From positions 363,302-427,301 of the forward strand of contig JBFWNU010000003.1 in NCBI GenBank assembly GCA_050250895.1: a DNA stretch of 64,000 nucleotides, in the 5' to 3' direction. Every line of letters starts with the position of its first letter. The stretch's first letter is position 1. Both the position numbers and the translations under genes were made by a program. The notes under the pieces were generated by a model, which was given only the letters and a program-made list of their open reading frames with translations, did no database searches and was not told the origin of the DNA. Below, piece by piece: positions 16,573 to 64,000 of the stretch. Origin of the DNA: Vulcanimicrobiota bacterium (GTDB lineage: Bacteria > Vulcanimicrobiota > Xenobia > Xenobiales > JADMJV01).

Positions 16573-18428
16573 TCGGCGGTCGGCTCGAAGACGAAGCGAT
16601 CCGGCACCGGCCGCGCTCCCGGGGTCAGGCCGAAATACTCCGACAGACCTCCAGAGGAAGGATCGGGGACCTGGATGGGCTCGCTGAGCAAGCCGCTCAA
16701 GTCGGTGGTGAAGTAGCAATCCGGCTCGCCCATCGGCCTCAGGTCTTGCAAGGTTAGCTTGCCGTCGGGTCGCGAAGCCAGCGACCCGGCCTGGTGAAAA
16801 GTCGAGGTGTTGATCGAGGTAGGGCTCCACTGGCCGTCTTTATACATCAACACCACATCGGGGCTGGCCAGTTGGTAAGTGGGAATACTCACGCTCACGC
16901 CAGCCCCGAATCCAGCCGTGAAGTTCCCGTTTTGAGCAATGTCCTCAGAGGCGCGCCAGAGCACGTAGACCTCTCCCTCGCTACCGATTTCGAGGTCGCC
17001 CCAGGTGTTGGCGAAGCGTCGGGCCTGCACGGTTTTACCGGCCTCGTCGAGAAAGACACCGGGCGGCGGAGGCAGCGCGCTCCATTCGCCGGTGACAGCG
17101 TCGCGCCGGCTGATGGTGTAAAGATTGGAATCGCCGTGGTGGGCATAGAGATTGCCAGCGGCGTCTGCTTCGAGTTCAACAATGCACTGGGATGGGTTGT
17201 CGGACTGTTCCAGAGTGAAATCGGGCTCGGCGCCAAAGGCTCCGCCCGCTTTGCCTGCCGGTGCAGGACCCTCGGGCCCGGCGACCCCTCCGAACAAGAC
17301 TGGACTGCCCGCGTTTCCGCTAAAGGAGCCGCTCGAGGGGGGAGCGCCCGGAAGGATGGGGGACGGCACCTTATAGCGCACTTCCAGGGCGGGTGGAGGG
17401 GAAATATCCTCCCACCGTTCGCTCTCGTAGGTGTAACGGCGAATGGCGTCGGGCCCTCGGCGCAGCACGGGCACATAGACCGATGCCCCGTCGCTGACGG
17501 GCTTTCCAGGCACCTGAGCTACGCGGTCGGTTGTGTCGGGCATCACGATGGGGATGCCCTCCCAGCTTCTGTTCTCGGACGAATAGTGATACAGCTCGGC
17601 CCCCGTGGTCAGGCCGATGGCCAGGTCCTGAAGCGGAAGCCGTCCTTCGGCCGGTCTCGGCGTCGGCGGCGGCATGTGGTTGCCAGAGTTGCCGGCGTTG
17701 CCAGCCACCCCTCCGCCGCTGAGAATCAGGTCTCCGTCGAGGGTTACCTCGTAGTTATACTCCAGCACTTCCGACAAGCGCCGCAGGAAGGCGGTGTTGA
17801 GCGAGCCATCGCGAACGAGCGAGTCGTTCTTGGCCACCACGGTCTGCATGAACTCGGGGGGAATCCCCGGGCCAGGCTGGCCATTGAGCGAGGGCAGAAA
17901 GAGGGCCCACAGTCCCCCCTGATGATCGGCCCTAAGAAAGGTCAGGCCCACCCCGGGAGCGGGCAGGCTCTGCCAGCCGTCCTGAGCGGTAGGCCGATAC
18001 AAGATCGTGTCGGAAGTGCTGACGTCGCCATCACTAAGCTGGGCATAGTCGACCCCCTCCACGGCCGGCTTCTTGTGCACCACCTGCTGGATGCTGACCG
18101 GCTCGCCCAGGCCGCCTTTGACTTCGGCCAGCAAGAACAGCACTTTGTCGCTCTCGCGCTCGACCCAGGCGTGAGCCGTCATGCCACTGGGCGCGTCTTC
18201 GAAGGACAGCTCTTGATGCTCGCTCTCGGTGCCTTCGTGGTTGAGGACTGCCAGGAGCGAGGCGATGGCGCTGCGGGCGAGCGACTCGCGCTGCAGGCGA
18301 GAACTCTCGAGCAACGTGGCTCGTGTCTCTTGACGCACCCGAACCACCATGGCCGAAGCCGCGAAAAAAGCGGCCATGACGAAGAAAAGAACCACCGGAA
18401 TGGCCAGGCCACGAAACTTGGTCGACAC
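16566..18428 (-). CDS. PilX/GspK-like N-terminus fused to a large beta-rich (propeller-like) domain; candidate pilus-tip protein
   Basis: RG/LAIPVVLFFV hydrophobic pilin-like start; repeated WxxLPxP / WEDISPP blades; first gene of the pilin operon; GTG 18428 lies 7 nt after TAAGAT. Confidence 0.7.
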   Translation of the reverse strand: MSTKFRGLAIPVVLFFVMAAFFAASAMVVRVRQETRATLLESSRLQRESLARSAIASLLAVLNHEGTESEHQELSFEDAPSGMTAHAWVERESDKVLFLLAEVKGGLGEPVSIQQVVHKKPAVEGVDYAQLSDGDVSTSDTILYRPTAQDGWQSLPAPGVGLTFLRADHQGGLWALFLPSLNGQPGPGIPPEFMQTVVAKNDSLVRDGSLNTAFLRRLSEVLEYNYEVTLDGDLILSGGGVAGNAGNSGNHMPPPTPRPAEGRLPLQDLAIGLTTGAELYHYSSENRSWEGIPIVMPDTTDRVAQVPGKPVSDGASVYVPVLRRGPDAIRRYTYESERWEDISPPPALEVRYKVPSPILPGAPPSSGSFSGNAGSPVLFGGVAGPEGPAPAGKAGGAFGAEPDFTLEQSDNPSQCIVELEADAAGNLYAHHGDSNLYTISRRDAVTGEWSALPPPPGVFLDEAGKTVQARRFANTWGDLEIGSEGEVYVLWRASEDIAQNGNFTAGFGAGVSVSIPTYQLASPDVVLMYKDGQWSPTSINTSTFHQAGSLASRPDGKLTLQDLRPMGEPDCYFTTDLSGLLSEPIQVPDPSSGGLSEYFGLTPGARPVPDRFVFEPTAEW

Positions 18429-18435
18429 GTAGTGG

Positions 18436-18468
18436 ATCTTACCATGGACTGGTGAAGATGGCCAGAAA
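18436..18468 (-). promoter_or_regulatory. Direct-repeat promoter motif TTTCT-N6-CTTCA-N11-TAAGAT
   Basis: Same spacing as the other copies; 7 nt to GTG start. Confidence 0.65.
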
Positions 18469-18543
18469 AAAAGAGTCCCCGGGGTAGGGGACTCGCGGCC
18501 GGCCACGGGGGAGGTACGGGGTCAAAACGCCGGCCGTCTACGT

Positions 18544-19233
18544 CTAACCCCAGTGGGCCGGAAGAGTTTCGAGGCGCCGAAACTCGCCCTCGGCCAGCCC
18601 TTCAAGCTCTAGACCTCCAAACGCACTGCGATGCAGATCGACGACCTGATTGCCCAGCAGTTCCAGCATCCTCTTGACCTGGTGAAAGCGGCCTTCGACC
18701 AGCACCAACTCGAGATGGTTCGGCGCCCGCAGGCTGGCCCGAGCTGGCAGCAGTCGCGAGCCGTCAAGTTCTAACTCGCCCGAGGTGAGCATGCCCAGGT
18801 CTTCTTCGCTGAGAGGGTCGCGGGTCTTGACCTGATACACCTTTTCCACCTTGTGCTTGGGCGAAGTCAAACGGTGCAACAGCTGACCGTCGTCGGTCAC
18901 CACCAGCACCCCGGTCGTATCTTTGTCGAGGCGACCGACGCTCGACAGTTTGGGCTTGCGTCGCCCATAGCGCTCGGGCAAGAGCGAATAGACCAGAGGA
19001 GGGTGATCGTCGTGACTGCAGGCGTAGCCGGCCGGCTTGTTAAGCAACAACACCAGCGGGGGCGCCGGGTCCAGCGGTTGCTCGTCGAGCCTCACGGTGG
19101 CCGGGTCGACCTTGACGGCGGCGGAGGCCGGCGGCTTGCCGTCGACCGTCAACCGCCCCTGGCGAATCAGCTTGCCAACCTCTTTTCGCGAGCAGTAGCC
19201 CAGGTTTGACATCACCCGATCAAGACGATTCAT
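18544..19233 (-). CDS. rsuA: rRNA pseudouridine synthase, RsuA family
   Basis: S4 domain RLDRVM...SRKE; VGRLDKDTTG; EGRFHQVKRM. Confidence 0.9.
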   Translation of the reverse strand: MNRLDRVMSNLGYCSRKEVGKLIRQGRLTVDGKPPASAAVKVDPATVRLDEQPLDPAPPLVLLLNKPAGYACSHDDHPPLVYSLLPERYGRRKPKLSSVGRLDKDTTGVLVVTDDGQLLHRLTSPKHKVEKVYQVKTRDPLSEEDLGMLTSGELELDGSRLLPARASLRAPNHLELVLVEGRFHQVKRMLELLGNQVVDLHRSAFGGLELEGLAEGEFRRLETLPAHWG

Positions 19234-20746: not shown

Positions 20747-20819
20747 CTGGCTGGACTTCCCTCTTCGCGATTTGCATCCCTTCGGGTTCGCCCCCGCTTT
20801 CGCCGGACTCTGGCCTGGC

Positions 20820-21225
20820 CGGCGATCGCCCACTCCGGCTGGGGGATCTCGCCCACTCCGGGTGGGGCCAAGCTCGGCGGGGTAGCCGAGGCTGGCGATC
20901 GCCCACTCCGGCTGGGGGATCTCGCCCACTCCGGGTGGGGCCAAGCTCGGCGGGGTAGCCGAGGCTGGCGATCGCCCACTCCGGCTGGGGCCAAGCTCGG
21001 CGGGCTGGCCGAGGCTAGCGATCGCCCACTCCGGCTGGGGGATTTCGCCCACTCCGGGTGGGGCCAGGGCGGGCGGGCTGTCCGAGGCTGGCGATCGCCC
21101 ACTCCGGCTGGGGGATTTCGCCCACCCCGGGTGGGGCCAGGGCGGGCGGGCTGTCCGAGGCTCGCGATCCCCCACTCCGGCTGGAGGATTTCGCCCACTC
21201 CGGGTGGGGCCAAGCTCGGGAGGCG
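20820..21225. repeat. Tandem repeat array (family B, ~73-bp unit GCGATCGCCCACTCCGGCTGGGGGAT...GGGGCCAAGCTCGGCGG)
   Basis: About six imperfect tandem copies, no unique spacers. Confidence 0.9.
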
Positions 21226-21244
21226 GCCCGAATGGCATGCCCGC

Positions 21245-25368: not shown

Positions 25369-25401
25369 TTTCACGACCCTTTCAGGCCATGGACCTAGAC
25401 T
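25369..25401 (+). promoter_or_regulatory. Direct-repeat promoter motif TTTCA-N6-TTTCA-N11-TAGACT
   Basis: Exact consensus copy upstream of 25417. Confidence 0.75.
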
Positions 25402-25416
25402 GTCATCGAGGTCCTT

Positions 25417-26523
25417 ATGAAAATCGTCAACACGCCATCGCCCATTATCGCCCCCCCGGCCGAGCGCAAGAAAGCGGCTCAAGAGCTGGGTTTTGACGAC
25501 ATCGACGACTACACCGGCCCGGTTGACGGCAAGTCGCATCCGGCCCATCGCGAGCTGTTACGGCCTCTCACCAAAGCGCTGGTGGCGCTGGAGTATCGCA
25601 CCGAGATCGAGGGGGCCGACAAGCTCCCCACCAGTGGGCCGCAGGTCTATTGCCCGACCCATCCCAGTTTTTTTGACCCGGCCGTGGTTTCGACGCTGTT
25701 CGACCGGGATGTGCGCTTTATCGCCAACTATCAGTTTTTCGACGGGGCCCGGGGCAAAATGATGACCTGGGGCGGAGCCTTTCCCGTCGATCTCGAGCGC
25801 GGCTCGCCCAGGGCCGTCAAGCATAGCCTAGAGATCGTCAAGGACGGACTGGGCTTCGTCATCTTCCCCGAAGGCAAGATCAGCGACCGGCCCGATCAGG
25901 TCGACCCACTCAAGAAGGGCGTCGGAATGATCGCCGTGCGCGGGGGGGCCGAGGCAATCACCCCCATCAGCGTTCATTACGTCAAGAACGACAAGGCTCG
26001 CTGGGGCGAGCTTGCGGCCGGATTGGCCACCAGCCTGGCCGTCGGAGTCGGCGCCACCCTGGCCGCCGTGGGGGATCCGGTGCTGCGCACCGTGGCCGGG
26101 GCTGCCACGGGAGCCCTGGCCGGGCTCTATTCAGGCGCCGCCCTGCTGCGCGCGAACACCGAACTCGAGAAGTCCTACGATCAGTTTCCCAAGTTTTTTG
26201 CCGGTCTCAAAGGTGGCGCCCTGGGGGCGGCCGCCGGAGCGGTGGCGGGCGCGGTCGTGGCTGGCTCCTTGCCGTTCGGCGGATTGGTGATGGCGGGGGT
26301 GGGAACCGTGGCCACCGCTGCCCTGGCCGATGCCTGGCGCACCCGCGACGTGGTCAAGGTGACGGTGGGCGATCCGCTGGTGGTCAAGGATTACGTCGAC
26401 AAGTATGGCAAGCGCGAGGCCGATCAGCGCATCAACGAAGACCTGCACACCGCGCTGGGTCACCTCAAAGCCGCTGCCTCTGGCACACCCTACGACGAGA
26501 ACGGCCCCAAAACCCGCGATTAA
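25417..26523 (+). CDS. Lysophospholipid acyltransferase (PlsC-like) with MKI leader and Gly/Ala-rich membrane insertion
   Basis: THPSFFD, GAFPVD, IFPEG motifs. Confidence 0.85.
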   Translation: MKIVNTPSPIIAPPAERKKAAQELGFDDIDDYTGPVDGKSHPAHRELLRPLTKALVALEYRTEIEGADKLPTSGPQVYCPTHPSFFDPAVVSTLFDRDVRFIANYQFFDGARGKMMTWGGAFPVDLERGSPRAVKHSLEIVKDGLGFVIFPEGKISDRPDQVDPLKKGVGMIAVRGGAEAITPISVHYVKNDKARWGELAAGLATSLAVGVGATLAAVGDPVLRTVAGAATGALAGLYSGAALLRANTELEKSYDQFPKFFAGLKGGALGAAAGAVAGAVVAGSLPFGGLVMAGVGTVATAALADAWRTRDVVKVTVGDPLVVKDYVDKYGKREADQRINEDLHTALGHLKAAASGTPYDENGPKTRD

Positions 26524-33883: not shown

Positions 33884-33916
33884 GTTCAAAAATCTTTCAG
33901 GCCGGCCGGCTAGAGT
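33884..33916 (+). promoter_or_regulatory. Direct-repeat promoter motif GTTCA-N6-TTTCA-N11-TAGAGT
   Basis: Same spacing as the other copies; upstream of 33949. Confidence 0.7.
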
Positions 33917-33948
33917 GGCGGTATAGCACCTGGAAGGACACATCGACC

Positions 33949-38034: not shown

Positions 38035-38067
38035 TTTCAAGCATGTTTGAGGCCAGTCGGCTAGGCT
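38035..38067 (+). promoter_or_regulatory. Direct-repeat promoter motif TTTCA-N6-TTTGA-N11-TAGGCT
   Basis: 8 nt before ATG 38076, no SD. Confidence 0.72.
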
Positions 38068-38075
38068 GAGAGTGT

Positions 38076-39182
38076 ATGGTCATTCGTCCTCTGCAAAGGG
38101 CATTGCTTTGGGCTCGGCGCGAGCCGGCGCCGAGGCATGACGAGCGCGACCTGATCGAGCGCTCGCCCAGCGGTCTGGTCCAGGCCGGGCGCACGGCCGC
38201 GGCGTTCGTATTACAGAAGGGTCTACCTCTGGCGGGCGTGGCGGTCGGTGGGGGCGCCGGATTGGCCGCGGGCACCGTCGCCACCGGCCTGTTGAGTTAT
38301 CTGGACGCACCCGAGCAGACCCCTCGACAGCGACTGACCGGGGCCCTGATCACGGCTGCCGGGGCCGGGCTGGTGGCGGGTGCGGCCGGGCTGGTTCACC
38401 CCGCGCTTGCCCTTGGCCTTTTGGGGGTCGGGACGGCCCTGGCGGCTGTGCTCGAGCTTGACTCGCGGCCTCACCAGAATTGGCGGGTCGACCTGGGCGG
38501 GTTCGCCGAGGCTTACGCCCAGCGGGCCGGCCAATTGCTGGCCGAGCGCGGTCTGGAGTTGCCGGGCTCGGGCCCAGGGTTTTCGCTTTCCGAGACGGGG
38601 GCCAACTTCCGGGCCCAGCGACGGATCGCCGAGATCACCGCTTTCAGCTGCCAGCATCTAGGGCCGGCGGCGGTGGTGGGACTGGTCGAGCAGTTGGGAC
38701 GGGAGCGGTTCGACTCGCAATTTGTCGACTGTCCTGAGCCGGTTCGCGTCACTTCGCGCCAGCAGCGCGATGGGGTCGAGATCGTGCGGGTCGAGGATTT
38801 GGCCGGCACCACCGCCCTGGCCGAGACCACCCGGGTGCTGGTGGACAGTTCGCTTGCGCCGGGCACGCCGCTTCACGATTTCGTGCTGGGTCACGAACTG
38901 AGCCACGTGCATCATCAGGACTGGGCGGCTCGACTGGCGGTGCTGACAGTAGGGGATAGCCTGTCGGGTGCGCTCGCTCGGCAATGGAAAGAGGCCGTTA
39001 AAGCAGCGACTCATCAGACCGAGCTACGCAGTGATGCCGAGGGAATGGGCTATGCGCTCAGGCAGGGTCACTCCCGGTCGGCCGTGCTGGAGGCGGCTCG
39101 GGGTCTCTTGGGTGAGGATCAGGCCTCGGCCCAGCACCCTGCCGGGCCGGAGCGTCTAAAGGCCCTGACTTTGGTTCTCTAG
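38076..39182 (+). CDS. Membrane-associated M48-like zinc metallopeptidase
   Basis: FVLGHELSHV, ELRSDAEG, QHPAGPERL; Gly/Ala-rich TM segments. Confidence 0.75.
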   Translation: MVIRPLQRALLWARREPAPRHDERDLIERSPSGLVQAGRTAAAFVLQKGLPLAGVAVGGGAGLAAGTVATGLLSYLDAPEQTPRQRLTGALITAAGAGLVAGAAGLVHPALALGLLGVGTALAAVLELDSRPHQNWRVDLGGFAEAYAQRAGQLLAERGLELPGSGPGFSLSETGANFRAQRRIAEITAFSCQHLGPAAVVGLVEQLGRERFDSQFVDCPEPVRVTSRQQRDGVEIVRVEDLAGTTALAETTRVLVDSSLAPGTPLHDFVLGHELSHVHHQDWAARLAVLTVGDSLSGALARQWKEAVKAATHQTELRSDAEGMGYALRQGHSRSAVLEAARGLLGEDQASAQHPAGPERLKALTLVL

Positions 39183-39676
39183 AGGACCGCGGCCACGTAG
39201 GCTACGGCCGCGGCCCCGCCGAGGCCCGCGCTGGTGGCCACATCCAGGCCCAGCATGTGGGCGGCCACCGTGGTTCCAACTCCCACCGGTACGCTGAGCG
39301 ACGAGAGGAGGGGGGAGAATTGGCTTTTCGAGGTGGCCACCCTGGTGGCCACCACCGCCCCTGCCGTCAGGCCTACCGCCAGCGACACGGGACCAGCCAG
39401 TTCGCCCGCCAGGTGGCCCAGGGTTTTCGATTGATCGAGCAGGGTCATGGCTACCGGAAAGGTGTCGATCGCTCCGCGCAAGAGCAAGCCCGTCCCGACG
39501 GTGGCTGCCCCGGCTGTTACCGACCCTAAAGAAAACGCCGCCAGCGAGCGACCTGCCGAAAGCGCTACCGTATCCTGCGGCTCCGCCGAAGAGCTCTCGG
39601 GCTTGGCACCGCCGGGGTTATGACTGACGGCCGCTCGGGTGGCGGCGGTATTGGGGTTCTGGGCAAAAATCTTCAT
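39179..39676 (-). CDS. Hypothetical membrane protein with MKI leader
   Basis: MKIFAQNPN...PQDTVALS then Gly/Ala-rich hydrophobic helices. Confidence 0.7.
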   Translation of the reverse strand: MKIFAQNPNTAATRAAVSHNPGGAKPESSSAEPQDTVALSAGRSLAAFSLGSVTAGAATVGTGLLLRGAIDTFPVAMTLLDQSKTLGHLAGELAGPVSLAVGLTAGAVVATRVATSKSQFSPLLSSLSVPVGVGTTVAAHMLGLDVATSAGLGGAAAVAYVAAVL

Positions 39677-39682
39677 GCCCAG

Positions 39683-39714
39683 AGCCTATTGGAGAACTCT
39701 TAAAAATCTTGAAA
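39683..39714 (-). promoter_or_regulatory. Direct-repeat promoter motif TTTCA-N5-TTTAA-N11-TAGGCT
   Basis: 6 nt before ATG 39676 (leaderless). Confidence 0.7.
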
Positions 39715-39756
39715 TAACTGGCGCCAAACGTTAATAAAGCGTTAAACGCCTTGGCG

Positions 39757-47118: not shown

Positions 47119-47694
47119 TTAGTAGTATTGGCGCCGGGGCATCAGTAAGGCCCGGCGCAAATCGTTCTCGGCGGGTCTCTCCAACGGGATTCTGCCGGGA
47201 TAGTCGAGCCCCACGGCGTCCAATTCCGACTTCTCCACTTGTTCCCGTTCACCTGGGCTCGGATTCCATGCATGTCCAGTCGCCATCGTGCCGGTCGCGG
47301 CGTCCACCGCGTGAGCTAGCTCATGCCCCAGGGTCACCGCCGTGGGAGCGATCACACCCGCGTCGGTATCAGCCCCATCAAACATCTTGATAGAGCTATC
47401 TGAGCCGGCTCCGGGCCGGCCGTCCGGGCGTCGGTGACCGGTCTCCTCGTCGTAGTCCATCTCCGGGTCGTTCTCCATGGTCTCGCGGACGGTGACCCGT
47501 TTGCCGCTGGCGTCGAGGCGGCGGAGCAGGTCTCGCCCCTCGGGAAAGGAGCGAAGGGCGTCGATATCAGCCTTGACCCGATCGAGGAACCTCTTTCTGC
47601 CTCGCAAGGTCAGGGAGTGGCCGAGGCCGTTGGAGCCGGGAGGGAGCGTGACCCTGTGGTCCTCAGGTCTTCGGCCATGCCGGTATTCTGGCAC
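47119..47694 (-). CDS. M91 (NleD-like) zinc metallopeptidase domain protein
   Basis: PEGRDLLRRL, GRPGAGSDS, VTLGHELAHA, ELDAVGL, ENDLRRALLMPRRQYY. Confidence 0.75.
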   Translation of the reverse strand: MPEYRHGRRPEDHRVTLPPGSNGLGHSLTLRGRKRFLDRVKADIDALRSFPEGRDLLRRLDASGKRVTVRETMENDPEMDYDEETGHRRPDGRPGAGSDSSIKMFDGADTDAGVIAPTAVTLGHELAHAVDAATGTMATGHAWNPSPGEREQVEKSELDAVGLDYPGRIPLERPAENDLRRALLMPRRQYY

Positions 47695-50135: not shown

Positions 50136-51119
50136 TCAGTCTACGGGTTGGGCGAGAAAAATGTCTGAAAGCTGATGGGCCAGTCGGCGGATGCGTCCAG
50201 GGGGGTAGTCTTCTTCTCGCACCCGGGCCAGCCAGGCTTTGGGAATGGCTGCCTCCCCCAGCAACGCTCCCGCGATGGACCCGGCCATGGCCGCGATGGT
50301 GTCGGTGTCGCCCCCGGCAAAGATGGCGGCCTCCACCACCCGCTCGAATTCGTGAGGATGGCTAAGAAAGCAGTAGATGGCCATGGGAACCGCCTCGAGC
50401 GCCGCTACCCCCGTGCCCAGGCGAGAGGCCATGGCCGGCAGCTCGAGCTGGCGGTCGAGGCCGTCCCGGAGCTGTTCGAGCCGGTCCAGGTAGGCGTCGG
50501 CCCGAAGATGCTCGAGAGTCCGCTCCAGCGAGAGCAAGAAGGCGTCGCGGTCCAAGGGTGGCTGCATTCGCAGGGCGGTGGCCACGGCCGCCGCCTGCAG
50601 GGTCGAACCGGCCACCGCCAGCGGATGCGAATGGGTGACCGTCGAAGCCAGGCGAGCTACCTGCACCAGGCGTTGGGGTTGGCGATGGAAGGCCAATCCG
50701 ATGGGGGCCACCCGCATGGCCGAGCCGTTGCCGTAGGAGCCGCCCGGAAACATCAAGGTGGACAGGGATTTCCAGTGGTGAGGGCGTTCGGGAAAGGCGC
50801 GCAGGATCCAGGTGACTCCCGAGCCGTAGCGGCGGGCCGGTCGGTAGGCCTCGGAAAATCGTGCCAGCAGGGCCTGGCCGTCGTCGACTTCGCCGGCCAA
50901 CAGCCATTCCGCCACGCACAGGGTCATCTGGGTGTCGTCGGTGTAGCGACCGACGCGCCAGCGACGGCCCAGGATGTCGGGCACCCACTCCGTGGCCAGG
51001 ATGTCGTTCACCTGGCGATAGTGTTTGGCGATGTAGCCTGGCGATTCGGACTCGACCACCGCGCCCAGCATGTCCCCCACCAGGCCTCCCAAGAGGCAAC
51101 CAGAAAAACGATTTCGCAT
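50136..51119 (-). CDS. ADP-ribosylglycohydrolase (DraG/ARH family)
   Basis: YTDDTQMT, SYGNGSAMRVAPIG, VTHSH, GGDTDTIAAMAG. Confidence 0.92.
   Translation of the reverse strand: MRNRFSGCLLGGLVGDMLGAVVESESPGYIAKHYRQVNDILATEWVPDILGRRWRVGRYTDDTQMTLCVAEWLLAGEVDDGQALLARFSEAYRPARRYGSGVTWILRAFPERPHHWKSLSTLMFPGGSYGNGSAMRVAPIGLAFHRQPQRLVQVARLASTVTHSHPLAVAGSTLQAAAVATALRMQPPLDRDAFLLSLERTLEHLRADAYLDRLEQLRDGLDRQLELPAMASRLGTGVAALEAVPMAIYCFLSHPHEFERVVEAAIFAGGDTDTIAAMAGSIAGALLGEAAIPKAWLARVREEDYPPGRIRRLAHQLSDIFLAQPVD
50138..50170 (-). promoter_or_regulatory. Direct-repeat promoter motif TTTCA-N6-TTTCT-N11-TAGACT
   Basis: Embedded in the 3' end of the upstream gene; same spacing. Confidence 0.7.
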
Positions 51120-56611: not shown

Positions 56612-57376
56612 TTACTTTTGGCCGGCGACCAGTTCCCGGGCGGCCTCGCGCAGGTCGGCCAGACCGTTGTCGAGATAGCTGGCATCTTCGGTTTCGAAGG
56701 CCCGGAGCATCTTGGCGAGAGCCTGCAAGCTGGCTTCGAAGGCGGCCAGACAGCGCAGGCGCAACTGGAAAGTGGCCGGGTCTTCGGTGTGAAAGTCGTG
56801 ATAGCGGTCGCGTTGGCGTTCCAGCGAGTCTCTCACCGACTCGACTGTCTTCTCGAAGGCTTCTCGTCCGCTGCCCTGGCGCCAACGCTCCAGGGCCGTG
56901 GCCACGCGAACGAAGTCCTCGGTGAGCAACTCGGGCTCGGGGGGCGCGCTCTCGCTCAGGCTGACCGTAGACTGGCGGGGGGCGTGCCAGCTGGGTAGCT
57001 GCACCGAACACGAGCCGCAACGGGGCGAGCCCACCGGGTTGGGTTGGGCGCAGCGCGGGCATAGGGCTTTGGCCACTTCTTCCAGGCTGTGCTGGGCCTC
57101 GACCATTTGGGCTACGGCCGCCTCGATGCGAGCCAGGCCGGGGGCGGGCTGCTCGAGGTGATCGGCCAGCCACTCGAGCGCTTCCAGGTGTTCGTCGAAG
57201 GCCTCCACCAGCTGATCACAGCCGGGCTCGTCGTCGGCGCTGGCTTCGAGTTCTTGCAGGTAGCCGGTGACGATATCGGCCACCTCTTCCAGTGTCGCCA
57301 ACAGGTGCTCGGCTTCGATCTCACCGGCCTGATAGGCTGCGAAGGCCTGGCGCAGCAGCTCCAGGGTCGGGGTCAC
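56612..57376 (-). CDS. Helical protein with central zinc ribbon
   Basis: CPRC..N......CGSC between two helical bundles. Confidence 0.75.
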   Translation of the reverse strand: MTPTLELLRQAFAAYQAGEIEAEHLLATLEEVADIVTGYLQELEASADDEPGCDQLVEAFDEHLEALEWLADHLEQPAPGLARIEAAVAQMVEAQHSLEEVAKALCPRCAQPNPVGSPRCGSCSVQLPSWHAPRQSTVSLSESAPPEPELLTEDFVRVATALERWRQGSGREAFEKTVESVRDSLERQRDRYHDFHTEDPATFQLRLRCLAAFEASLQALAKMLRAFETEDASYLDNGLADLREAARELVAGQK

Positions 57377-57378
57377 GT

Positions 57379-57939
57379 CTACAATCCCGAAGGCCGGCCG
57401 GCACGGTTGGCGGCTTCGTGGGCGGTGCGATAATCGGTGTGGAATAGCGCCTCGAAGCGAGCCTCGAAATACTCATGCCCGAGCAACTGCAGATCGCCCG
57501 GGCCGTGGGCACCCTGTTGCAGCCGTGACCAGGCGTTGGCGATCTGCGGGTCGGCGTCGAATCGGCGCTGGCCGTCATCGAGTTGATGGGTGTTGTAGAA
57601 AAGGTGGGCTTTGATGCGGGCTACTTGCTGAGGCGAAAAGGGGGTGTTGGCCGCGATCAGCTCGACATCCCCCGAGGTCGTGCGCACGCGCTCATAGTAG
57701 CCCTCGGCCCGGTCCCACGAGTCGACGGCCGTCGGCTCGAGTTCTCGAGCCAGCACCGCGCCGATCGGTCCGGGGATGGCGCCAGCCACCAGGCCGGGGT
57801 TGAGGTTGGCCGGCCGGACTTGAGGCCGGGCTTGAAGCTCCACCGAATCCACCGGGGCATAGGGCTCGGCGGCGCTAGGAGTCGAGGCCCTGCGAGCAAC
57901 AAGAGGGACGGGTCGCCAGCCTATTCCGATGGGCTTCAT
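57379..57939 (-). CDS. Short leader fused to a polymorphic-toxin-type C-terminal domain
   Basis: AEGYYERVR...DVELIAANT...RIKAHLF...RFDADPQIANAWSRL...DLQLLGHEYFE...YRTAH. Confidence 0.7.
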   Translation of the reverse strand: MKPIGIGWRPVPLVARRASTPSAAEPYAPVDSVELQARPQVRPANLNPGLVAGAIPGPIGAVLARELEPTAVDSWDRAEGYYERVRTTSGDVELIAANTPFSPQQVARIKAHLFYNTHQLDDGQRRFDADPQIANAWSRLQQGAHGPGDLQLLGHEYFEARFEALFHTDYRTAHEAANRAGRPSGL

Positions 57940-57945
57940 GCCCTC

Positions 57946-57967
57946 AGTCTGGCAGATCGGTCTTAAA
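57946..57967 (-). promoter_or_regulatory. Half copy of the direct-repeat promoter: TTTAA-N11-CAGACT
   Basis: 6 nt to ATG 57939; distal repeat absent. Confidence 0.55.
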
Positions 57968-57972
57968 GATAC

Positions 57973-58176
57973 CTATCCCGTGCCGAGGGTCGCTTCCAGA
58001 GTGGTCTGGCGCTCGTCGAGTTCCTCGAGCAAGCAGCGTAAATAGTGCAGGTCGTTGAGGTGGTCGGCCTGCTCGTCCTCGTCCTCGGTGGCTTGCAGCG
58101 CCGCCTCGAGTTTCTCGATGTGGACTTTGACCGACAAGACCAAGAAATGGAGAGCTTTGGACGAGAAGGGTTTCAT
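57973..58176 (-). CDS. Small acidic helical protein
   Basis: 67 aa; AGGAG SD within the upstream stop region; co-oriented with 58179-61718. Confidence 0.6.
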   Translation of the reverse strand: MKPFSSKALHFLVLSVKVHIEKLEAALQATEDEDEQADHLNDLHYLRCLLEELDERQTTLEATLGTG

Positions 58177-58178
58177 GG

Positions 58179-61100
58179 TTACTCCTGGACCGGCACGTTG
58201 AAGTCGCCGATGATGACCTGCTCTTCTTCGCGCTCAAGCGAAGGGTTCGAGCGGGGTTGGGTCGAGACGTAGAGGTTGACGGCTGTCTTGATGGCTTCGG
58301 CGATGGCCGGGTCGGCGGCCCCGCGGGCCCGCTCGCGACTGACCAGGGCGGTCAAGAATTCGGTCGCCTCGGCTTCGCTTTGACCGTGGCCGGAAAGAGC
58401 CAGGTGAGCCACGCACAGAGCGCCGGCCAGGGCGGGCGAGCCGGCCACCGCCATGTAGGTCTCGCCCAGGGCCGGGTTGGCTCCGCTCGAGACCAGCTCT
58501 ACCGCGCCCACGAACTGCCCCTGGCCGGCCATCTTGACGAACCAGTGGACCTGTGGCCCAGTCCAGTTTTCGATCGCACTCAGCTCGGCCAGTCCAGCCA
58601 CTAAATGGTCGCCCTGACGGTCGCGCATCGCGTCGCGGGCGGCCTCCACGACGGCCATGGCCTGATCTGGCCCGAGCCGTCGCTCGACCAGGCCGGCGAA
58701 GCTTGCATAGAGTCCCTTCATGACCGCATACTGGTTCAAGGGAGTTGGCAGCTTTTCATACTCGACCAGCTGTTTGTAGGCTTCCACTCGCTGGCCGAGA
58801 TCGAGCTGGGCCAACGGTTTGGCCAGGAGTTCTTGCACCTCGCTGGCGGCTTTGGCGGCAAATCCATGCTCGGTCATGGTCACCGACAATTCGGCCAGAG
58901 GGGTGCCCTGGCTTTTGGCCAGCAACCCCAGCAAGCCTTCGATCTCGCTCGACTCGAGCCCGCGCCCGATACCGCCGGTCACTAACCGAGCCAGGTCGGC
59001 TGGCTCGAGGGCCGGCTGCTGGCTCCAGGTCTTGTAGGCGCTGGCCACGTCGGCGCCGTGGCTCTCTACTCCGGCGAAGGCCTCCCGCAGCGAGGTCAAG
59101 CGCTGCATGGTGGTGGCCCTGTCGTCGCCGGCTTCGAGACGCTGGCTGTAGGCGGCGTAGGCGGCATCCATGACGGCATAGGTGCTAAACGGAGGCTTGA
59201 GGTCCTCGAGCGCGAGCATACTGGCGAAGTCCTCGGCTCGCTGGGCGAAGGTGGTGGAAGCTCTGGGTTTTTCTAACTCTTCGACGAACTTCTTGGCTTG
59301 CTCGGCGCTGTAGTGCGGTTTGGCCATCAGGGTCAAAAGGCGCACCCGGGCCGGGTCGTGGTCGAGCAACTCGATGAAGCTTAGCCTGTCGTCGCCTAGC
59401 TTCTGAAAGGCCTCGTAGGTCTCGGTGAGGTCAAGCGTTCCCAGACTGGCCGCTTTGGACGCGAAGGCGAGATCCCAGCCCTTCGAGAGCAGCGGAGCAA
59501 GCTTGGGCACGGTCTCTTCCATCTTGCCCTGGAGTTGTTCAAAGACGGTGACATACTCCTGGAATCCAGCTCCGCGCTCGGCCAGCGACCCCCTCAGGGT
59601 GATGGCGTTTTCGAGGGCCGTGTCACCGTGGCCGGCTTTGACTTCTTCGCCAAAGGCGTCATAGAGCGCATGCATCACGGCGTACTTGTTGAGCGGGTCT
59701 TTAAGATCGTCGAGTCCGATGAGGCGAGAGAAGGCCTGGTTGCGCTCGGCCAGAGTGGTGCCGGGCAGGTCGGCGTGGATCTTGGTCATCAGCTTTTTGG
59801 CCTCCTCGGCTGAAAAGCCGGTCTCGACCATTCGCAAAGCCAACTCGCCCGTCTCGGGGGCCTGGCCGTAGAGTTCGGCAAAGACGATCTGGTCGGAGCC
59901 GTCCGTCTTGAGTTTTTCGAATCCGGCCGTGAGCCTGCTCAGGTGCTCGGGCGGTGGCGGGTCCTTCAGCAGGCTGGCCAGCTTGACCCCGAAGTCGACC
60001 GGCACCCCTTCCTGGAGGAAGGCCAGCAGATGGTCGAGTCGGGTCGGGTCCTGGACCATCTCTTGATGATAGACGGCCATGCCCTCCTTGCCGAACTGCT
60101 CGCCGCGGGTGAAGGCGTCGCGCAGTCGGATGGTGCGCTCGAGAGCCTGAGGTTGCGGTCGACCGGCTTTTAGCTCGGCCCGATAAGTAGCCAGCAGTTC
60201 TTCCATCACCCCGTATTGATTGAGCGGCGGCTTCAAGTCGTCGAATTTCAACAGCTTGCGAAAAGCGTCGACCTCCTGGCTTACCGAACTCGAGGCCGGT
60301 GGCTTACTTAAGGCTTTCGAGAACTGCTCGGCGTACTTGGCGTCATAACCGACCCTGGCCATGTCCACGAGCAACTCCCGCGAAGACGGCTCGGCCAAGC
60401 TACCGGCCAGCTCGATCCAGGTGCCGGTGTCGCCAAGTTGTCGGGTTTTCAGTGGCTCGAGCAGGGCGTTGACGGTATCCAGCTGGTCAGGAGCCTTCTC
60501 ATAGGCTCGCTGTGCCCAGTTGTAGGCCCACCCGGCCTCGAGTTGGGCGGTGATGGTGGCCACGCTCTCGGGATGCTGGGTGCAAAACTCCAGCCCCTCT
60601 TTGAGCGAGTTTGCGTCGGTGAGCAAGACATTGCGAAGTTGCTCGACCTGGTGCAGGTCGCCATGGACGGCGTAGGCTGAATAGAGCGCCTCCATGACGG
60701 CATACTGGTTGAGAGGGGCCTTCAGGTCTTCGACCTTGATCAGCTTTTCAAAGGCGGCCACGCGCTCGTCGAGGCTGGTGGCAGCGACCGGCTCCTGGAT
60801 GCGCTTGAGGAACTTCTCGGTGTGTTCAGCATCAAAGCCCGTCTCGACCATTCTGGTCAAAAGCCCGACCTGAGCCGGGGGCAGCTGGTCGAGCAGCTCG
60901 AATCGTTGGAGCTTCTCGTGATCCCTTAGTTGCGAGCCCTGTAGGGCCTCGTTGAGCCGGGCCATGGCCGGTACCGAATGGCGAGACTGCAATCGTCTGG
61001 CCGCTTCCGCCAACCCGTTTTCGGGTTGGCGACCGGGCACCAGGCCAAAGCTCATGAAGAGGGCGGCGTTGGAGGGAAAATCTCCGCTGACCAGGTGGTC

Positions 61101-61718
61101 GAGAACCTCCGGGTCGCGAGCCCGGTTGGCGCAGTCGAGAAACAGCTTGCGAGTGTCGTCGGGCAGTTTCCAGCTTAATTTGGCCAGGGTCTCGGTAGAT
61201 TGCCCGTGCTGGTGGCAGTGGCGGTAGAGTTGGGCCATCACCCAGGCGGGCTCTTCCTCGGCCCGCCCTTTAAGTTGCTCGAGTTGGGCCAGTTCGCCCG
61301 GCTCGAGTTCGAGCCCGTCAAAGTGATACTCCAGGGGAGCCGAAGCCTCGGGCCAGCGGTTCTCGACCTGCAAATACGCCTGGTAGGGAGCCAGCGACAG
61401 CTCGACTCCATGTTCGGCCAGATTCAGCAGGCTTTCCGCGGCCGGCGGGGGGTCGGCCTTGAGGCCGTGAAACGCCAGCAGGGCAGCCAGATCGCCAGGG
61501 GTGGCCACGGGTGCAAAGCTCTCTCCCAGCTTGGTGAATAGCTTTCCGCCGCTGAGTTTGTCTCCGGCCTCGTCGGTGGTGACGGTTCGGTAGGGCGACA
61601 TCAGGCCGGGCACATAAAAACTGCGCCGTTCAAATAGCTCGACCGGGCCTTCCTCGAGGGGCGGCCTGGCTCGACTCGGGTTGGCTGAGTGCGAGACTGA
61701 GAGAGGACCGATTTTCAC
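58179..61718 (-). CDS. Large helical repeat protein (five ~165-aa repeats) with MKI leader
   Basis: Five copies of M...G(F/Y).A....L..P......R..AF..L....DLK.PLNQYAVM. Confidence 0.85.
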   Translation of the reverse strand: MKIGPLSVSHSANPSRARPPLEEGPVELFERRSFYVPGLMSPYRTVTTDEAGDKLSGGKLFTKLGESFAPVATPGDLAALLAFHGLKADPPPAAESLLNLAEHGVELSLAPYQAYLQVENRWPEASAPLEYHFDGLELEPGELAQLEQLKGRAEEEPAWVMAQLYRHCHQHGQSTETLAKLSWKLPDDTRKLFLDCANRARDPEVLDHLVSGDFPSNAALFMSFGLVPGRQPENGLAEAARRLQSRHSVPAMARLNEALQGSQLRDHEKLQRFELLDQLPPAQVGLLTRMVETGFDAEHTEKFLKRIQEPVAATSLDERVAAFEKLIKVEDLKAPLNQYAVMEALYSAYAVHGDLHQVEQLRNVLLTDANSLKEGLEFCTQHPESVATITAQLEAGWAYNWAQRAYEKAPDQLDTVNALLEPLKTRQLGDTGTWIELAGSLAEPSSRELLVDMARVGYDAKYAEQFSKALSKPPASSSVSQEVDAFRKLLKFDDLKPPLNQYGVMEELLATYRAELKAGRPQPQALERTIRLRDAFTRGEQFGKEGMAVYHQEMVQDPTRLDHLLAFLQEGVPVDFGVKLASLLKDPPPPEHLSRLTAGFEKLKTDGSDQIVFAELYGQAPETGELALRMVETGFSAEEAKKLMTKIHADLPGTTLAERNQAFSRLIGLDDLKDPLNKYAVMHALYDAFGEEVKAGHGDTALENAITLRGSLAERGAGFQEYVTVFEQLQGKMEETVPKLAPLLSKGWDLAFASKAASLGTLDLTETYEAFQKLGDDRLSFIELLDHDPARVRLLTLMAKPHYSAEQAKKFVEELEKPRASTTFAQRAEDFASMLALEDLKPPFSTYAVMDAAYAAYSQRLEAGDDRATTMQRLTSLREAFAGVESHGADVASAYKTWSQQPALEPADLARLVTGGIGRGLESSEIEGLLGLLAKSQGTPLAELSVTMTEHGFAAKAASEVQELLAKPLAQLDLGQRVEAYKQLVEYEKLPTPLNQYAVMKGLYASFAGLVERRLGPDQAMAVVEAARDAMRDRQGDHLVAGLAELSAIENWTGPQVHWFVKMAGQGQFVGAVELVSSGANPALGETYMAVAGSPALAGALCVAHLALSGHGQSEAEATEFLTALVSRERARGAADPAIAEAIKTAVNLYVSTQPRSNPSLEREEEQVIIGDFNVPVQE

Positions 61719-61724
61719 CCTTAG

Positions 61725-61794
61725 AGTGTAAACAAGCGGTCCTAAAAAACCCTGAAGCCCATTTCAGGAAACTTTCAACCCGGTAGAATAACCT
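61725..61794. promoter_or_regulatory. Back-to-back divergent copies of the direct-repeat promoter
   Basis: Minus: CTTCA-N6-TTTAG-N11-TACACT-N6-GTG (61725-61757); plus: TTTCA-N6-TTTCA-N11-TAACCT-N7-GTG (61762-61794). Confidence 0.78.
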
Positions 61795-61801
61795 CAACCT
61801 T

Positions 61802-64000
61802 GTGAAGATCTCTCCCGTGGGTCATAGCCCCGTCACCCGAGCGGCCGCTGCCGCCCCGCCCGACGGAGTCGACTTTTTGATGAAACGCCAATTTCAGCTG
61901 CCCTGGCAAGACGAGTACTATCCGGTCACGCGCGAGCAAGCGCAAGCCCACTGCCAGGAGCGTCCGTGCGTGGTCAAACTGCCCGATGGACCATCACCGC
62001 TGCCGGTCGCCTCGCCGCAAGATGTGCAAGAACTCGACGCTCTGTACGGGTCCACCGCCGCTAACGATCTGGCCGGCAATCTTCGCCAACTCGCCAGCGG
62101 CGGCGCGCGTTTTTACGCCGATCTCGACGGACGCCGCAGCGAGGTGGGCCTCTATGGAGCTTACAACGGCTTGACCGGGGACCTGGGCTTGACCCGGGTC
62201 GAGATGACAGACCGCTGGGGCAGCCTGGCGCTCACCGAGGCCGCCCAGGTCGCCCAGCTGGCGGCCTTCGCTCAAGATTCGCAGGGCGAGTTGCAAACGC
62301 TTGCCAATCAAGACTTCCAGTTCTTCAACACCCAGGGCGAACAGGTGCACCCCTGGCTCGCCTCGACCGGTTCGTCGTTCTCGGTGGGTCGGGGTGGGCA
62401 TAACTGGGTCGGGTCGGGCCCTGAGCTGACCGCCCGTTGCCAGCGCTTTGATCGCATCTGGCATGAGTTTGACCGGGACATCGAGCCGGCCAGGGTCGTC
62501 TTTGCAAAACTCTCGGGCCAGCCTCCGACCCTCGAACAGGTGGCTGACCTGATCGAAGGCACCACGGGTCCGACGGCCGAAAGCCTGCTCGATTACGGTC
62601 TGGAGAAATGCCAGCATCCGGCTGCGGCCTTGCTGCGGGCGGCCGCCCGAAACGGCGATGTCTTCCCGTATTTGCAGGGTGATCCTCAGCCCCGCCAGTT
62701 GCTGAGCGCCCTGACCGAGCAGCTGAGCGACCACGACTTCTGCCGCTTCGCAAAAGCCGAATTGAACTCGAAGTTTCTCGACAAGCATGCCCCCGAAGAC
62801 GTCTCGGTGGCGCGTCCTTTGCTGTCAGCCGTTCTCGAGAAGAGCGAACTGCGCGAGGCTTTCGCCGATGCCTTCACCGCCTGGGGCGAGCAAGAGGACC
62901 GTTCGCTCGACGATGGAATGATTGCCTTGTGGGCGCTGTTCTCGCGTTCACCGGCGGGTTCGAGCGACAAGCTGCTCAAAGGCGCCTTTCAAGACGGCCA
63001 GACCCTGCTGGGATTCGAGCAGAATCAGTCGCTGGTGGCCATCGCCCAGACCCTGCTGGCCGCCCCGCCCCAATCCGACAATTTGCAGATGGTCAAGGCC
63101 TGCCTGACGGCCATCGACTCGGCCGAGGACCGCGGTACCTTCGCCCGGGGTGTGCTGCCCGTCCTCAAGCGGCTGGTGCCGGCCGAGAAGGCTCGCCTTG
63201 AAGGCCTCTCGGAATGGACCTCCGAGATCGACGAAAGGGCTCAGGGAAGAGTGCTGGCCTATGCCCTGACTCATCTCGACGAGAACCCCGCCAAGTTGGT
63301 TCAGGGAGCCGTGGATAGCATCGCCGCCGATTATCCCGAGGCAGCCGGAGACCTGGCCCAGAATGTGCTCGAGCAGAGTTCACCCGAGCGCTACCAGCTG
63401 TACAGTCAATACTTCCACAACGAGGACGGTGGCTCGATTTTCTCCGAAGAGGCCTCGCGAGCGGTGGTGCTGAGCGCCTTTTCTCAGGACCGGCCGCCGG
63501 CCGAGAGCGCCCTCCAAGCTAGTGCCCAGCTCGAGGCCCTCGACCTCGAAGGCAAGTGGGAGGACCGCAGCGCCCTGCTCAAAGCCACCTTACGGATGTA
63601 TGACGAAGGGGAGTCGACTCGGCGCGTGGCCGAGTTTGCCCGAGGCTTCTTAGAGGGCGTGACGCTGGAAGACTGGGCGAGCGAGAATGGCTTTCTCGAG
63701 GCGGCTCTGCGCCATCGCGAGGCTCGTAGCTACGACGACTGGCTGGGGCTGACCCGCGAGTCGGTGGCGGGCGCCGTCCATGATGCCGACTCGGCGCGCC
63801 TGGGCAAGGCGTTGCTAGAGCGCCTGGACAACTTTGCCGAGGCTCCCGCCTGGATCGGTCTGCTGCGCCACACCGCCTTCGCCGCCAACCTCGACGAAGA
63901 GGCTGGTGGTCGCATCGTGGCCGCTGCTCTGGCCGGGCCCGCTCCCACTCGACCCGAGCAGTTTCCGGGGTTCGTGGCCCGCCTGACGGCCTCGATTGAG
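61802..64000 (+). CDS. Large hypothetical protein with MKI leader, runs off the window end (>=733 codons)
   Basis: Manual translation of both ends, MKISPVGHSPVTRAAAAAPPDG... and ...FPGFVARLTASIE, in the same frame; absent from the ORF track, consistent with no stop in the window. Confidence 0.8.
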   Translation, partial: MKISPVGHSPVTRAAAAAPPDGVDFLMKRQFQLPWQDEYYPVTREQAQAHCQERPCVVKLPDGPSPLPVASPQDVQELDALYGSTAANDLAGNLRQLASGGARFYADLDGRRSEVGLYGAYNGLTGDLGLTRVEMTDRWGSLALTEAAQVAQLAAFAQDSQGELQTLANQDFQFFNTQGEQVHPWLASTGSSFSVGRGGHNWVGSGPELTARCQRFDRIWHEFDRDIEPARVVFAKLSGQPPTLEQVADLIEGTTGPTAESLLDYGLEKCQHPAAALLRAAARNGDVFPYLQGDPQPRQLLSALTEQLSDHDFCRFAKAELNSKFLDKHAPEDVSVARPLLSAVLEKSELREAFADAFTAWGEQEDRSLDDGMIALWALFSRSPAGSSDKLLKGAFQDGQTLLGFEQNQSLVAIAQTLLAAPPQSDNLQMVKACLTAIDSAEDRGTFARGVLPVLKRLVPAEKARLEGLSEWTSEIDERAQGRVLAYALTHLDENPAKLVQGAVDSIAADYPEAAGDLAQNVLEQSSPERYQLYSQYFHNEDGGSIFSEEASRAVVLSAFSQDRPPAESALQASAQLEALDLEGKWEDRSALLKATLRMYDEGESTRRVAEFARGFLEGVTLEDWASENGFLEAALRHREARSYDDWLGLTRESVAGAVHDADSARLGKALLERLDNFAEAPAWIGLLRHTAFAANLDEEAGGRIVAAALAGPAPTRPEQFPGFVARLTASIE

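Follow-up and report, generated by a model that had tools for sequence, protein, structure and literature searches.

Which genes are read from a short direct-repeat promoter that recurs nine times within 64,000 nucleotides (nt) of a Vulcanimicrobiota genome, and what do their products have in common? The stretch in question, hereafter the window, covers positions 363302-427301 of contig C3 in the genome numbered G000 here (9.5 Mb, 17 contigs, 63% G+C, 99.6% complete). A first-pass annotation had described nine upstream regions with the architecture TTTCA-N6-TTTCA-N11-TANNNT and had proposed a dispersed, mostly leaderless regulon under a winged-helix activator, which would link pilins to orphan effector-like genes. 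All nine sites were found at the claimed places. For the follow-up, genes were predicted with our own codon-usage caller (7752 genes, 88% coding), with approximate start codons, and a weight matrix for the repeats (the box) and the -10 hexamer was derived from genome-wide sites, with scores given in bits and thresholds of 12 and 16. Eight of the nine sites score 17-33 bits and the ninth, at 18468 on the minus strand, 12.0 bits.

The motif clearly exceeds chance. In the window, six matches with at most two mismatches stand against 0.12 expected, and 100 shuffles never gave more than one. Genome-wide, a pattern search returned 51 exact, 110 one-mismatch and 135 two-mismatch matches, whereas patterns with an altered first spacer (3-9) or second spacer (8-14) gave 0-2 exact, 1-12 one-mismatch and 30-75 two-mismatch matches. 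The spacing between the repeats is rigid at N6, with 51 exact matches versus 0-1 for the other gaps from N3 to N9. By weight matrix, 528 sites reach at least 12 bits and 382 at least 16 bits (strong sites). Strong sites are intergenic in 94% of cases, with 23 of 382 inside called genes against a coding share of 83%, and they are indeed dispersed, being present on all 14 contigs longer than 50 kb with a maximum of 7 per 30 kb. The start codon follows the -10 by 5-9 nt at 200 of the 382 strong sites and by 10-60 nt at 124, while 17 have no open reading frame (ORF); the commonest distance is 6 nt (142 of 528 sites). The description as mostly leaderless is borne out for about half of the genes (200 of 382). 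In the band from 12 to 16 bits, 55 of 146 sites lie inside called genes, and if false sites fall randomly, ~66 of these 146 (~45%) and ~28 of the 382 strong sites are estimated to be false. The estimate of true sites is ~430, roughly one per 18 genes. Some 400 scattered genes share one rigid promoter sequence, and judged from the DNA the regulon appears to be real, conserved, very large and of the activator type.

An extended consensus from 161 sites reads TTTCAG-nn-(T/A)tt-TTTCAG-N10-TA-G-n-C-T; the seventh base after the hexamer is a purine, and from that base onward a trace of ATG-AAG-ATC is visible. Spacer and flank columns outside these blocks have no information content, and therefore the box is not a copied repeat element. 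The columns at a spacing of 17-18 base pairs (bp) read A-G-n-n-T-T and not TTGACA, so that there is no functional -35 hexamer, and the claim that direct repeats with an 11-bp period replace the -35 was borne out. Ordinary promoters of the genome look different: a TANNNT hexamer precedes the start codon by 6 nt in 592 genes versus ~140 at 5, 8 or 9 nt, which means that the genome has many leaderless candidates, and among the 682 box-less candidates an ordinary -35 is faintly visible (T 0.37, T 0.29, G 0.44; 17-bp spacing), together with an extended -10 G. Upstream of the 64 tRNA genes no site occurs within 300 nt, and no window gene with a housekeeping-type Pfam domain is preceded by one, in agreement with the initial observation on those housekeeping genes that had been checked. 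The box marks a promoter subclass, not a general promoter. Among pentamers repeated at 11 bp ahead of TANNNT, TTTCA with its 51 exact cases is the largest class by far. Repeat classes at a fixed distance to TANNNT were also seen for GTTGA (6 exact, control 0.2) and CAAGG (11, with a 9-bp gap); these may be boxes of other activators and were dismissed as comparable classes, being only minor.

The box is conserved among relatives. All 15 genomes of the same family have exact boxes (7-48 each), as have all five of a second family (16-40 each) and two of the three from a family of another order (11 and 12); reversed-pattern controls gave 0-1 matches. A third family of the same order has small genomes; three of its genera show no excess over the control, and one genus keeps few sites (G033, 7 versus 0; G037, 3 versus 0). 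Among 201 genomes of the phylum, a count that includes the unpublished G127, which backs no claim, no further family is enriched except an AT-rich one whose controls also match. The 114 small genomes of the largest family, f15, have from none to two recurrent boxes each. At the f15 loci L279-L287 (nine loci, eight genomes), the box TTTCAGAnTTTTTTCA-N11-TAnnnT drives a lipoprotein of ~370 amino acids (aa) without Pfam family, whose ORF is broken in one locus; a Phosphoesterase-family gene comes next in one genome, and the box lies downstream of a FtsW/RodA-like gene in both loci checked upstream. This lipoprotein may be the ancestral target of the regulator, and the distribution as a whole suggests that a small ancestral regulon was greatly expanded in the large-genome clades.

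The proteins encoded behind the box, here called cargo, are orphans for the most part, as had been supposed from the window. Among the 80 best-scoring box-driven proteins of at least 100 aa, 27 have a Pfam domain (E<=1e-4) and 53 have none, compared with domains in 35 of 45 box-less window genes (cut-off E<=1e-3 for 33 and 1e-4 for 12). With NCBIfam, 61 orphans, six of them from the window, gave no match over the cut-off. After removal of the first 70 residues, 328 box-driven proteins formed 260 clusters including 228 singletons; the largest cluster has 10 members, all acyltransferases, among them the product of window gene 25417.

Box proteins have no Sec signal peptide and tend to bear an N-terminal tag: it opens with Met-x-Ile/Val, is free of acidic residues over the first dozen positions and continues with a stretch rich in Pro, Ser, Thr, Ala and Arg. 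In some of them, D-x-V-x-L-S stands near residue 30, and a Gly/Ala-rich hydrophobic stretch comes after it. Known domains begin late (residue 129 for DAO, 93 for adenosine deaminase, 97 for caleosin, 73 for GDPD, 54 for flavin reductase, 187 for Endonuclease_1 and 170 for SecA), so that the tag comes in addition to these domains. Ile or Val occupies the third position in 124 of 200 box genes without a leader and in 55 of 124 with one, compared with 116 of 689 leaderless genes that have no box; since leadered box genes show it too, the tag follows the box and not leaderless translation. An untrained rule (Ile/Val at residue 3, no Asp/Glu at residues 2-12) applies to 101 of 246 box proteins versus 427 of 6976 others (odds ratio 6.7), and a cross-validated N-terminal position matrix gives a score of at least 4 for 48% versus 3.7%. 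The strict form D-x-[VIF]-x-[LIV]-S was matched by only 6.6% versus 1.0%; the tag alignment was too gappy for a hidden Markov model (HMM). The first 25 residues have a net charge of +1.7 in box proteins versus +0.2, a hydrophobic N-terminus is found in 3.7% versus a background of 21.6% and a hydrophobic stretch at residues 25-110 in 22% versus 8%, and cysteine is depleted to 0.61-0.66 of background. InhA-like MAM, Endonuclease_1 and PQQ_2 propeller proteins belong to mostly extracytoplasmic families, and those found here bear the tag instead of a signal peptide.

The tag follows the box at 8 of 10 sites in G010 and at 10 of 20 in G018. Two related large-genome families have kept both box and tag, and in a third family the box alone is enriched. 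For type III substrates of P. syringae, three N-terminal rules have been published (PMC3338616). Of 365 box proteins, 207 satisfy rules 2 and 3 together (1470 of 7247 others) and 50 satisfy all three (138 of 7247 others), while the serine rule alone applies to only 75. The chances appear about even that the tag is an export or targeting signal and the regulon a co-induced exported set. The motif statistics, the position, the conservation, the association with the tag and the diversity of the cargo are established by the analysis.

In the window, the sites and the genes behind them are as follows.

25369..25403, plus strand: box and -10, TTTCACGACCCTTTCAGGCCATGGACCTAGACT, 27.6 bits
25417..26523, plus strand: cargo gene of 368 aa, start codon 15 nt past the -10; tag MKIVNTPSPIIAPP...; acyltransferase domain from residue 62
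33884..33918, plus strand: box and -10, 32.6 bits
33949..34320, plus strand: orphan cargo gene of 123 aa, MINAGIPNFRVPSH...; 32-nt leader
38035..38069, plus strand: box and -10, 33.4 bits
38076..39182, plus strand: leaderless cargo gene of 368 aa; tag MVIRPLQRA...
39681..39715, minus strand: box and -10, 21.6 bits; distal repeat 1 base nearer to the proximal one than in the consensus
39179..39676, minus strand: leaderless cargo gene of 165 aa; tag MKIFAQNPNTAATRAA...DTVALS, then a Gly/Ala-rich hydrophobic stretch
50136..50170, minus strand: box and -10, 26.5 bits
49427..50113, minus strand: orphan cargo gene of 228 aa; 24-nt leader
57944..57978, minus strand: half box (proximal repeat only) and -10 CAGACT, 17.2 bits
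57379..57939, minus strand: leaderless cargo gene of 186 aa; tag MKPIGIGWRPVPLVARRAS...DSVELQ; no pilin
56612..57376, minus strand: next operon gene after 57379..57939, acidic protein of 254 aa (isoelectric point, pI, 4.5) without family
61723..61757, minus strand: box and -10, 26.2 bits; back to back with the box at 61762..61796
58179..61718, minus strand: leaderless orphan cargo gene of 1179 aa; tag MKIGPLSVSHSANPSRARPP...
57973..58176, minus strand: acidic protein of 67 aa (pI 4.7) without family, directly after the 1179-aa gene
61762..61796, plus strand: box and -10, 29.1 bits; exact pattern match
61802..64000, plus strand: leaderless cargo gene that exceeds the window (820 aa on the contig); tag MKISPVGHSPVTRAAAAAPP...
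18434..18468, minus strand: marginal site, 12.0 bits; 2 repeat mismatches
15692..18428, minus strand: operon behind the marginal site, encoding a tag-less 620-aa membrane protein, a 128-aa protein and a 165-aa prepilin-motif protein
8094..11030, minus strand: receiver-BTAD (SARP-type) regulator of 978 aa, one of ~30 paralogs in the genome
6448..8097, minus strand: histidine kinase adjoining the regulator

At six of the nine sites the start codon lies 6-8 nt past the hexamer, in accordance with the original count (8 nt for 38035, 6 nt for 39715, 57978 and 61757, 7 nt for 61762 and 18468), and at the remaining three at 15, 24 and 32 nt. The gene at 25417..26523 belongs to the largest cargo family (10 paralogs) and that at 61802..64000 to a family of five members. 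The C-terminal region of the protein encoded at 38076..39182 is weakly M48-like. For the 1179-aa protein, nine matches (E<=0.001, itself included) were obtained in 1.84 billion representative proteins, and the relatives are too few for an alignment. The two acidic proteins encoded after tagged cargo genes (57973..58176 and 56612..57376) may be dedicated chaperones. Nothing distinguishes the regulator at 8094..11030 from its paralogs. Between 44000 and 49100 the G+C content of the window dips to 0.61; an HNH gene, a resolvase-like endonuclease, a HEPN/nucleotidyltransferase pair and a Peptidase_M91 'effector protein' gene (47119-47607) lie there, none of them with a box, and the region may be an acquired island.

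The proposed link to pilins did not hold up in the same way and is unproven. The sole gene with a prepilin N-methylation motif (15692-16189; N_methyl match, E 2.6e-5, found only there) ends the operon behind the weakest site, which with 12.0 bits falls into the band where ~45% of sites are estimated to be false. The first protein of this operon lacks the N-terminal tag, and it is doubtful whether the site 18434..18468 belongs to the regulon. No prepilin N-methylation motif is present in the genes at 56612-57939, which are not pilins.

We favour the explanation, which as a whole we regard as reasonably probable, that the element represents an activator-dependent promoter class with mostly orphan, tagged cargo. 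On the assumption that transcription begins 7 nt past the hexamer, the TTTCAG repeats, 11 bp apart, would lie at about -39 to -34 and -28 to -23 in place of a -35; the 22-bp box then spans -39 to -18 with its centre at about -28.5, with 8-10 bp between the hexamer and the conserved portion of the 3' repeat. The repeats are probably bound by a winged-helix activator (SARP or OmpR/PhoB type) in the form of a tandem dimer, and the bound activator would hold the housekeeping RNA polymerase at a normal -10 (TAGnCT). In about half of the cases, transcription would begin at the start codon and thereby give a leaderless mRNA.

Regulators of both types are encoded in the genome, as had been anticipated. 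There are 19 OmpR-type response regulators, and 10 large proteins with Trans_reg_C and BTAD were found by Pfam. With a home-made HMM, ~30 receiver-SARP hybrids of 700-980 aa were detected, in which an N-terminal receiver and a middle region are followed by a C-terminal winged helix and BTAD. Other SARP-module proteins carry AAA/NACHT-TPR or HD_5 ahead of the module. BTAD matches number 32 in G000, 4-24 in related box-rich genomes and 1-3 in box-poor small genomes. The receiver-SARP hybrids are a candidate class for the box-binding activator. Of the OmpR-type genes, C1:106829, C8:295619 and C11:57906 are closer to box-bearing than to box-free relatives; nothing else distinguishes these three, and their fit to the phyletic pattern is loose. 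One OmpR-type operon (C3:280.7-282.3k) has only a half site.

If the cargo is exported, two routes are candidates, a second SecA as the better-supported one and a flagellar type III gate as the weaker. The second SecA has 1194 aa with a tag-like N-terminal extension of 170 residues and stands behind a 29.5-bit box in G000, and it is found behind sites of at least 16 bits in G001, G002, G006, G008 and G010. A second SecA-domain match, mostly in a long ORF (>1000 aa), is present in most box-bearing genomes and in the genus with few sites, and in three box-free genera (14 genomes) one SecA or none was detected. Both full FHIPEP genes lie in clusters with FliE, FlgB/C, FliF, FliG and FliH, one of them also with FliI, FliM/N and FliK; with both clusters flagellar in make-up, no injectisome was found. 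The genome has two secretin genes, neither within ~340 kb of either FHIPEP cluster, and no type VI secretion system (T6SS) sheath (VipB) was found. Contractile injection was rejected as a route, there being no Phage_sheath_1 in G000 or in 38 of 40 relatives.

The two complete flagellar-type gates (C1:585667-587631 and C1:1458935-1461040) are 45% identical to each other. The one at C1:1.459 Mb is ancestral (76-80% identical in small genomes), and the second is confined to some of the genomes that bear the box; a third gate type, 62-66% identical, occurs in one genus of relatives. As a general route the second gate was rejected; it is missing from the box-rich genomes G016 and G020. In or beside the flagellar clusters there are weak sites of 12.8-13.9 bits, and two stronger ones (32.5 and 24.5 bits) that point towards an orphan gene or towards no ORF at all. 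For flagellin, a sigma-28-like promoter, GCCGATAA, lies ~150 nt upstream of the gene, which has no box (G000 C1:571160-571320, C1:554283-555895); two genes near flagellin, with N-termini resembling CsrA and FliW, are presumably these. FHIPEP matches number 3-19 in related large-genome families versus 2-3 in small-genome relatives, where the totals include one C-terminal-only copy in the genomes listed. Eight genes of G000 encode only the cytoplasmic C-terminal domain of FlhA, i.e., the type III docking ring, in proteins of 366-1001 aa:

C1:1126976-1127566: FlhA C-terminal-only gene
C1:2008860-2009774: FlhA C-terminal-only gene
C1:2013982-2014740: FlhA C-terminal-only gene
C1:2475431-2476438: FlhA C-terminal-only gene
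C6:529401-530381: FlhA C-terminal-only gene
C7:117253-118194: FlhA C-terminal-only gene
C7:121919-122905: FlhA C-terminal-only gene
C8:31716-32150: FlhA C-terminal-only gene

These stand-alone paralogs have neither box nor tag and were discarded as part of the regulon.

Several observations weigh against an activator-dependent regulon of exported proteins or against single elements of it. The weight matrix of the box and the matrix of the tag were both built from our own hits, gene starts rest on our own codon-usage caller, and genome size and common descent confound the correlations seen across relatives. The tag is loose, about half of the box proteins scoring, and follows only 1 of 10 boxes in G040; more than 100 genes have a strong tag without a box, which makes the tag a protein feature in its own right. 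Regarding the activator, none of ~45 SARP-model matches has a box upstream (the highest value, 9.2 bits, is below the 12-bit threshold), and no OmpR-type (Trans_reg_C) gene has a strong box directly upstream. The HD-SARP protein L271 was dropped as the conserved regulator because it is patchy, a full-length orthologue being missing in most of one genus and in the second family. Regarding the routes, the SecA paralogs of the second family and of genus g3 are box-less (eight orthologues in seven genomes below 4 bits, one at 12.7), and the box-bearing genomes G005 and G007 show one SecA only. No strong box lies ahead of the flagellar operons of either cluster, G016 and G020 have one full FlhA only, and flagellar substrates score low on the tag matrix (flagellin -1.8, FlgK -2.0, FlgL -3.2).

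Other explanations were weighed against the same data. A reading of the sites as random matches, or as a small mobile repeat that was copied around and lacks promoter function, has practically no probability left: apart from the weak tail of the scores, with its many sites inside called genes, everything speaks against it, namely the 51 exact matches versus 0-2 at other spacings, the intergenic, gene-facing strong sites at a fixed distance to the start, the non-motif columns without information and the retention of the pattern across families ahead of unrelated genes. By spacing, position and column information this reading is refuted. An alternative sigma factor that reads a bipartite upstream element and its own -10 without an activator would fit the spacing to the -10, which is as rigid as in sigma-dependent promoters, and the -10 of box promoters, whose bias (G at hexamer position 3 and C at position 5, plus a C immediately upstream) exceeds that of other leaderless promoters; an ECF-like sigma gene adjoins motor genes. 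We nevertheless regard it as very improbable, considering that identical direct repeats one helical turn apart are the signature of a tandem dimer and not of sigma region 4, that with spacers of 10 or 21 bp neither repeat falls into the range of 16-19 bp ahead of the -10, that the hexamer is of the same TANNNT class as in other promoters and that half sites with the proximal repeat alone occur. The box could also be the Pho box of the phylum, bound by a PhoB/PhoP orthologue, and the regulon an enlarged Pho regulon instead of an export programme. Glycerophosphodiester phosphodiesterase (GDPD), Endonuclease I, glycerol-3-phosphate oxidase and acyltransferases are of classes that are Pho-regulated in other bacteria, and the box genes include the former three and the 10-member acyltransferase family. 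The conserved box of small genomes drives a lipoprotein, with the Phosphoesterase-family gene next in one genome, and one OmpR-type regulator is 65-80% identical in all four relatives compared. The core TTCA at an 11-bp period also resembles PhoP sites from the literature (PMC2275107, PMC4832192). Against this, neither PstS (PBP_like_2) nor PhoU was matched in the 99.6% complete genome, while the controls matched in 13 of 14 reference genomes, and G000 seems either to lack the usual high-affinity phosphate system or to have a very divergent one. Moreover, a nutrient regulon leaves the two-thirds of orphan cargo with a common tag unexplained, and three genera keep OmpR-type regulators yet show no box enrichment. 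On balance, a Pho regulon is unlikely.

A further alternative accepts the promoter and concerns only the tag, which might act inside the cell: it could, for example, address proteins to the membrane or to a compartment, mediate docking, or control degradation or translation in a developmental programme. Some tagged families look cytoplasmic (SecA paralog, peptide deformylase, PrmA, ADP-dependent kinase, PilZ), the hydrophobic stretch at residues 25-110 in 22% of the box proteins would suit an anchor, no injectisome, T6SS sheath or contractile-tail sheath was found, and flagellar substrates fail the tag matrix. This does not sit well with agreement far above background for two of three type III substrate rules, with the finding that mostly extracytoplasmic families bear the tag where other members would have a signal peptide, with the depletion of cysteine and with a second SecA that is co-regulated and co-distributed with the box. 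We consider an intracellular tag possible, with the odds somewhat against it.

Known systems resemble the box and the tag in part. The pho box lies 10 bp upstream of the -10, and TTTCAG and the hexamer are likewise 10 bp apart here. PhoP of S. coelicolor recognises 11-nt direct repeat units in more than 100 genes (PMC2275107), PhoP sites consist of 7-bp repeats with a 4-bp spacer (PMC4832192), and the Pho boxes of E. coli, S. coelicolor and M. tuberculosis share with the present box the tandem head-to-tail winged-helix sites, the 11-bp period beside the -10 and the large regulon (PMC2275107, PMC4832192, PMC11825685). This genome differs in having no PstS or PhoU family match and in its mostly orphan, tagged cargo. 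With the predicted start, the geometry would agree with that given for SARP/AfsR-dependent promoters ('sigma adaptation'): the afs box of Streptomyces AfsR comprises two 11-bp repeats centred at -29.5 that overlap the -35 and the spacer, with the 3' repeat ~8 bp from the -10 (PMC10936776). Both boxes are direct repeats with an 11-bp period beside a normal -10 and no usable -35, and the present one would likewise overlap the -35/spacer; the published centre of -29.5 compares with a predicted one of about -28.5 here, and SARP modules (winged helix and BTAD) are numerous in this genome. In contrast, the repeat is TTTCAG here, one box class has ~400 sites instead of a handful per antibiotic gene cluster, and the module is C-terminal behind a receiver, while it is N-terminal in the protein described in PMC10936776.

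With regard to export, the hrp box (HrpL) and the PIP box (HrpX) of plant pathogens are short promoter boxes that mark scattered secreted effectors and have been used to find them genome-wide (PMC2957411, PMC3879358, PMC6913199). Similarly, a short box marks a scattered gene set here and the N-termini may have a comparable compositional signal (PMC3338616); however, no injectisome was found, the box is not ahead of apparatus genes, the regulon is several-fold larger, and the box consists of direct repeats one helical turn apart. [quoted passage not shown] Both those systems and the cargo here combine an N-terminal signal, putative in the present case, with the lack of a Sec peptide, the flagellar gate being the exporter in the known cases, and some tags start flagellin-like, e.g., MIINQNLSAINY.... 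Unlike there, flagellar substrates fail the tag matrix here, the extra FlhA is missing in some box-rich genomes and the flagellin promoter is sigma-28-like. SecA2 exports some proteins without signal peptides. In Gram-positive bacteria, this accessory protein is a second, non-housekeeping SecA beside SecA1 (PMC4457860). Likewise, a second SecA exists here, box-driven and co-distributed with the box, but the paralog has a tag-like N-terminal extension of ~170 residues. For Eremiobacterota, 8-Mb, possibly predatory families have been reported (PMC9259500), and a search of literature on the phylum combined with secretion or flagella yielded no description of the box or the tag.

Taken together, the data point to a big, centrally controlled, probably exported protein set that has not yet been described in this lineage. 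Tentatively, and at less than even odds, we envisage that a clade of an uncultured phylum built an effector-like arsenal: hundreds of fast-evolving, unrelated proteins would be controlled by one SARP-type box and carry a new export tag that an accessory SecA under the same control, or else a flagellar gate put to new use, would recognise, and this system would have grown from an ancestral regulon of one to few genes that is kept in small-genome relatives. If true, box and tag would be a ready catalogue of secreted attack or host-contact proteins of this lineage. The logic by which effectors are catalogued with hrp and PIP boxes would thereby reach a lineage without a cultured close relative, with ~400 promoters and with the tag as a second, independent mark on the proteins themselves, and several thousand 'hypothetical' genes in at least three families would become a defined, testable set. 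The finding also points to a class of regulators, the receiver-SARP hybrids, not studied outside actinomycetes and suggests an undescribed N-terminal targeting signal. With one or few sites in small genomes and hundreds in large ones, it may offer a clean case for the growth of a regulon.

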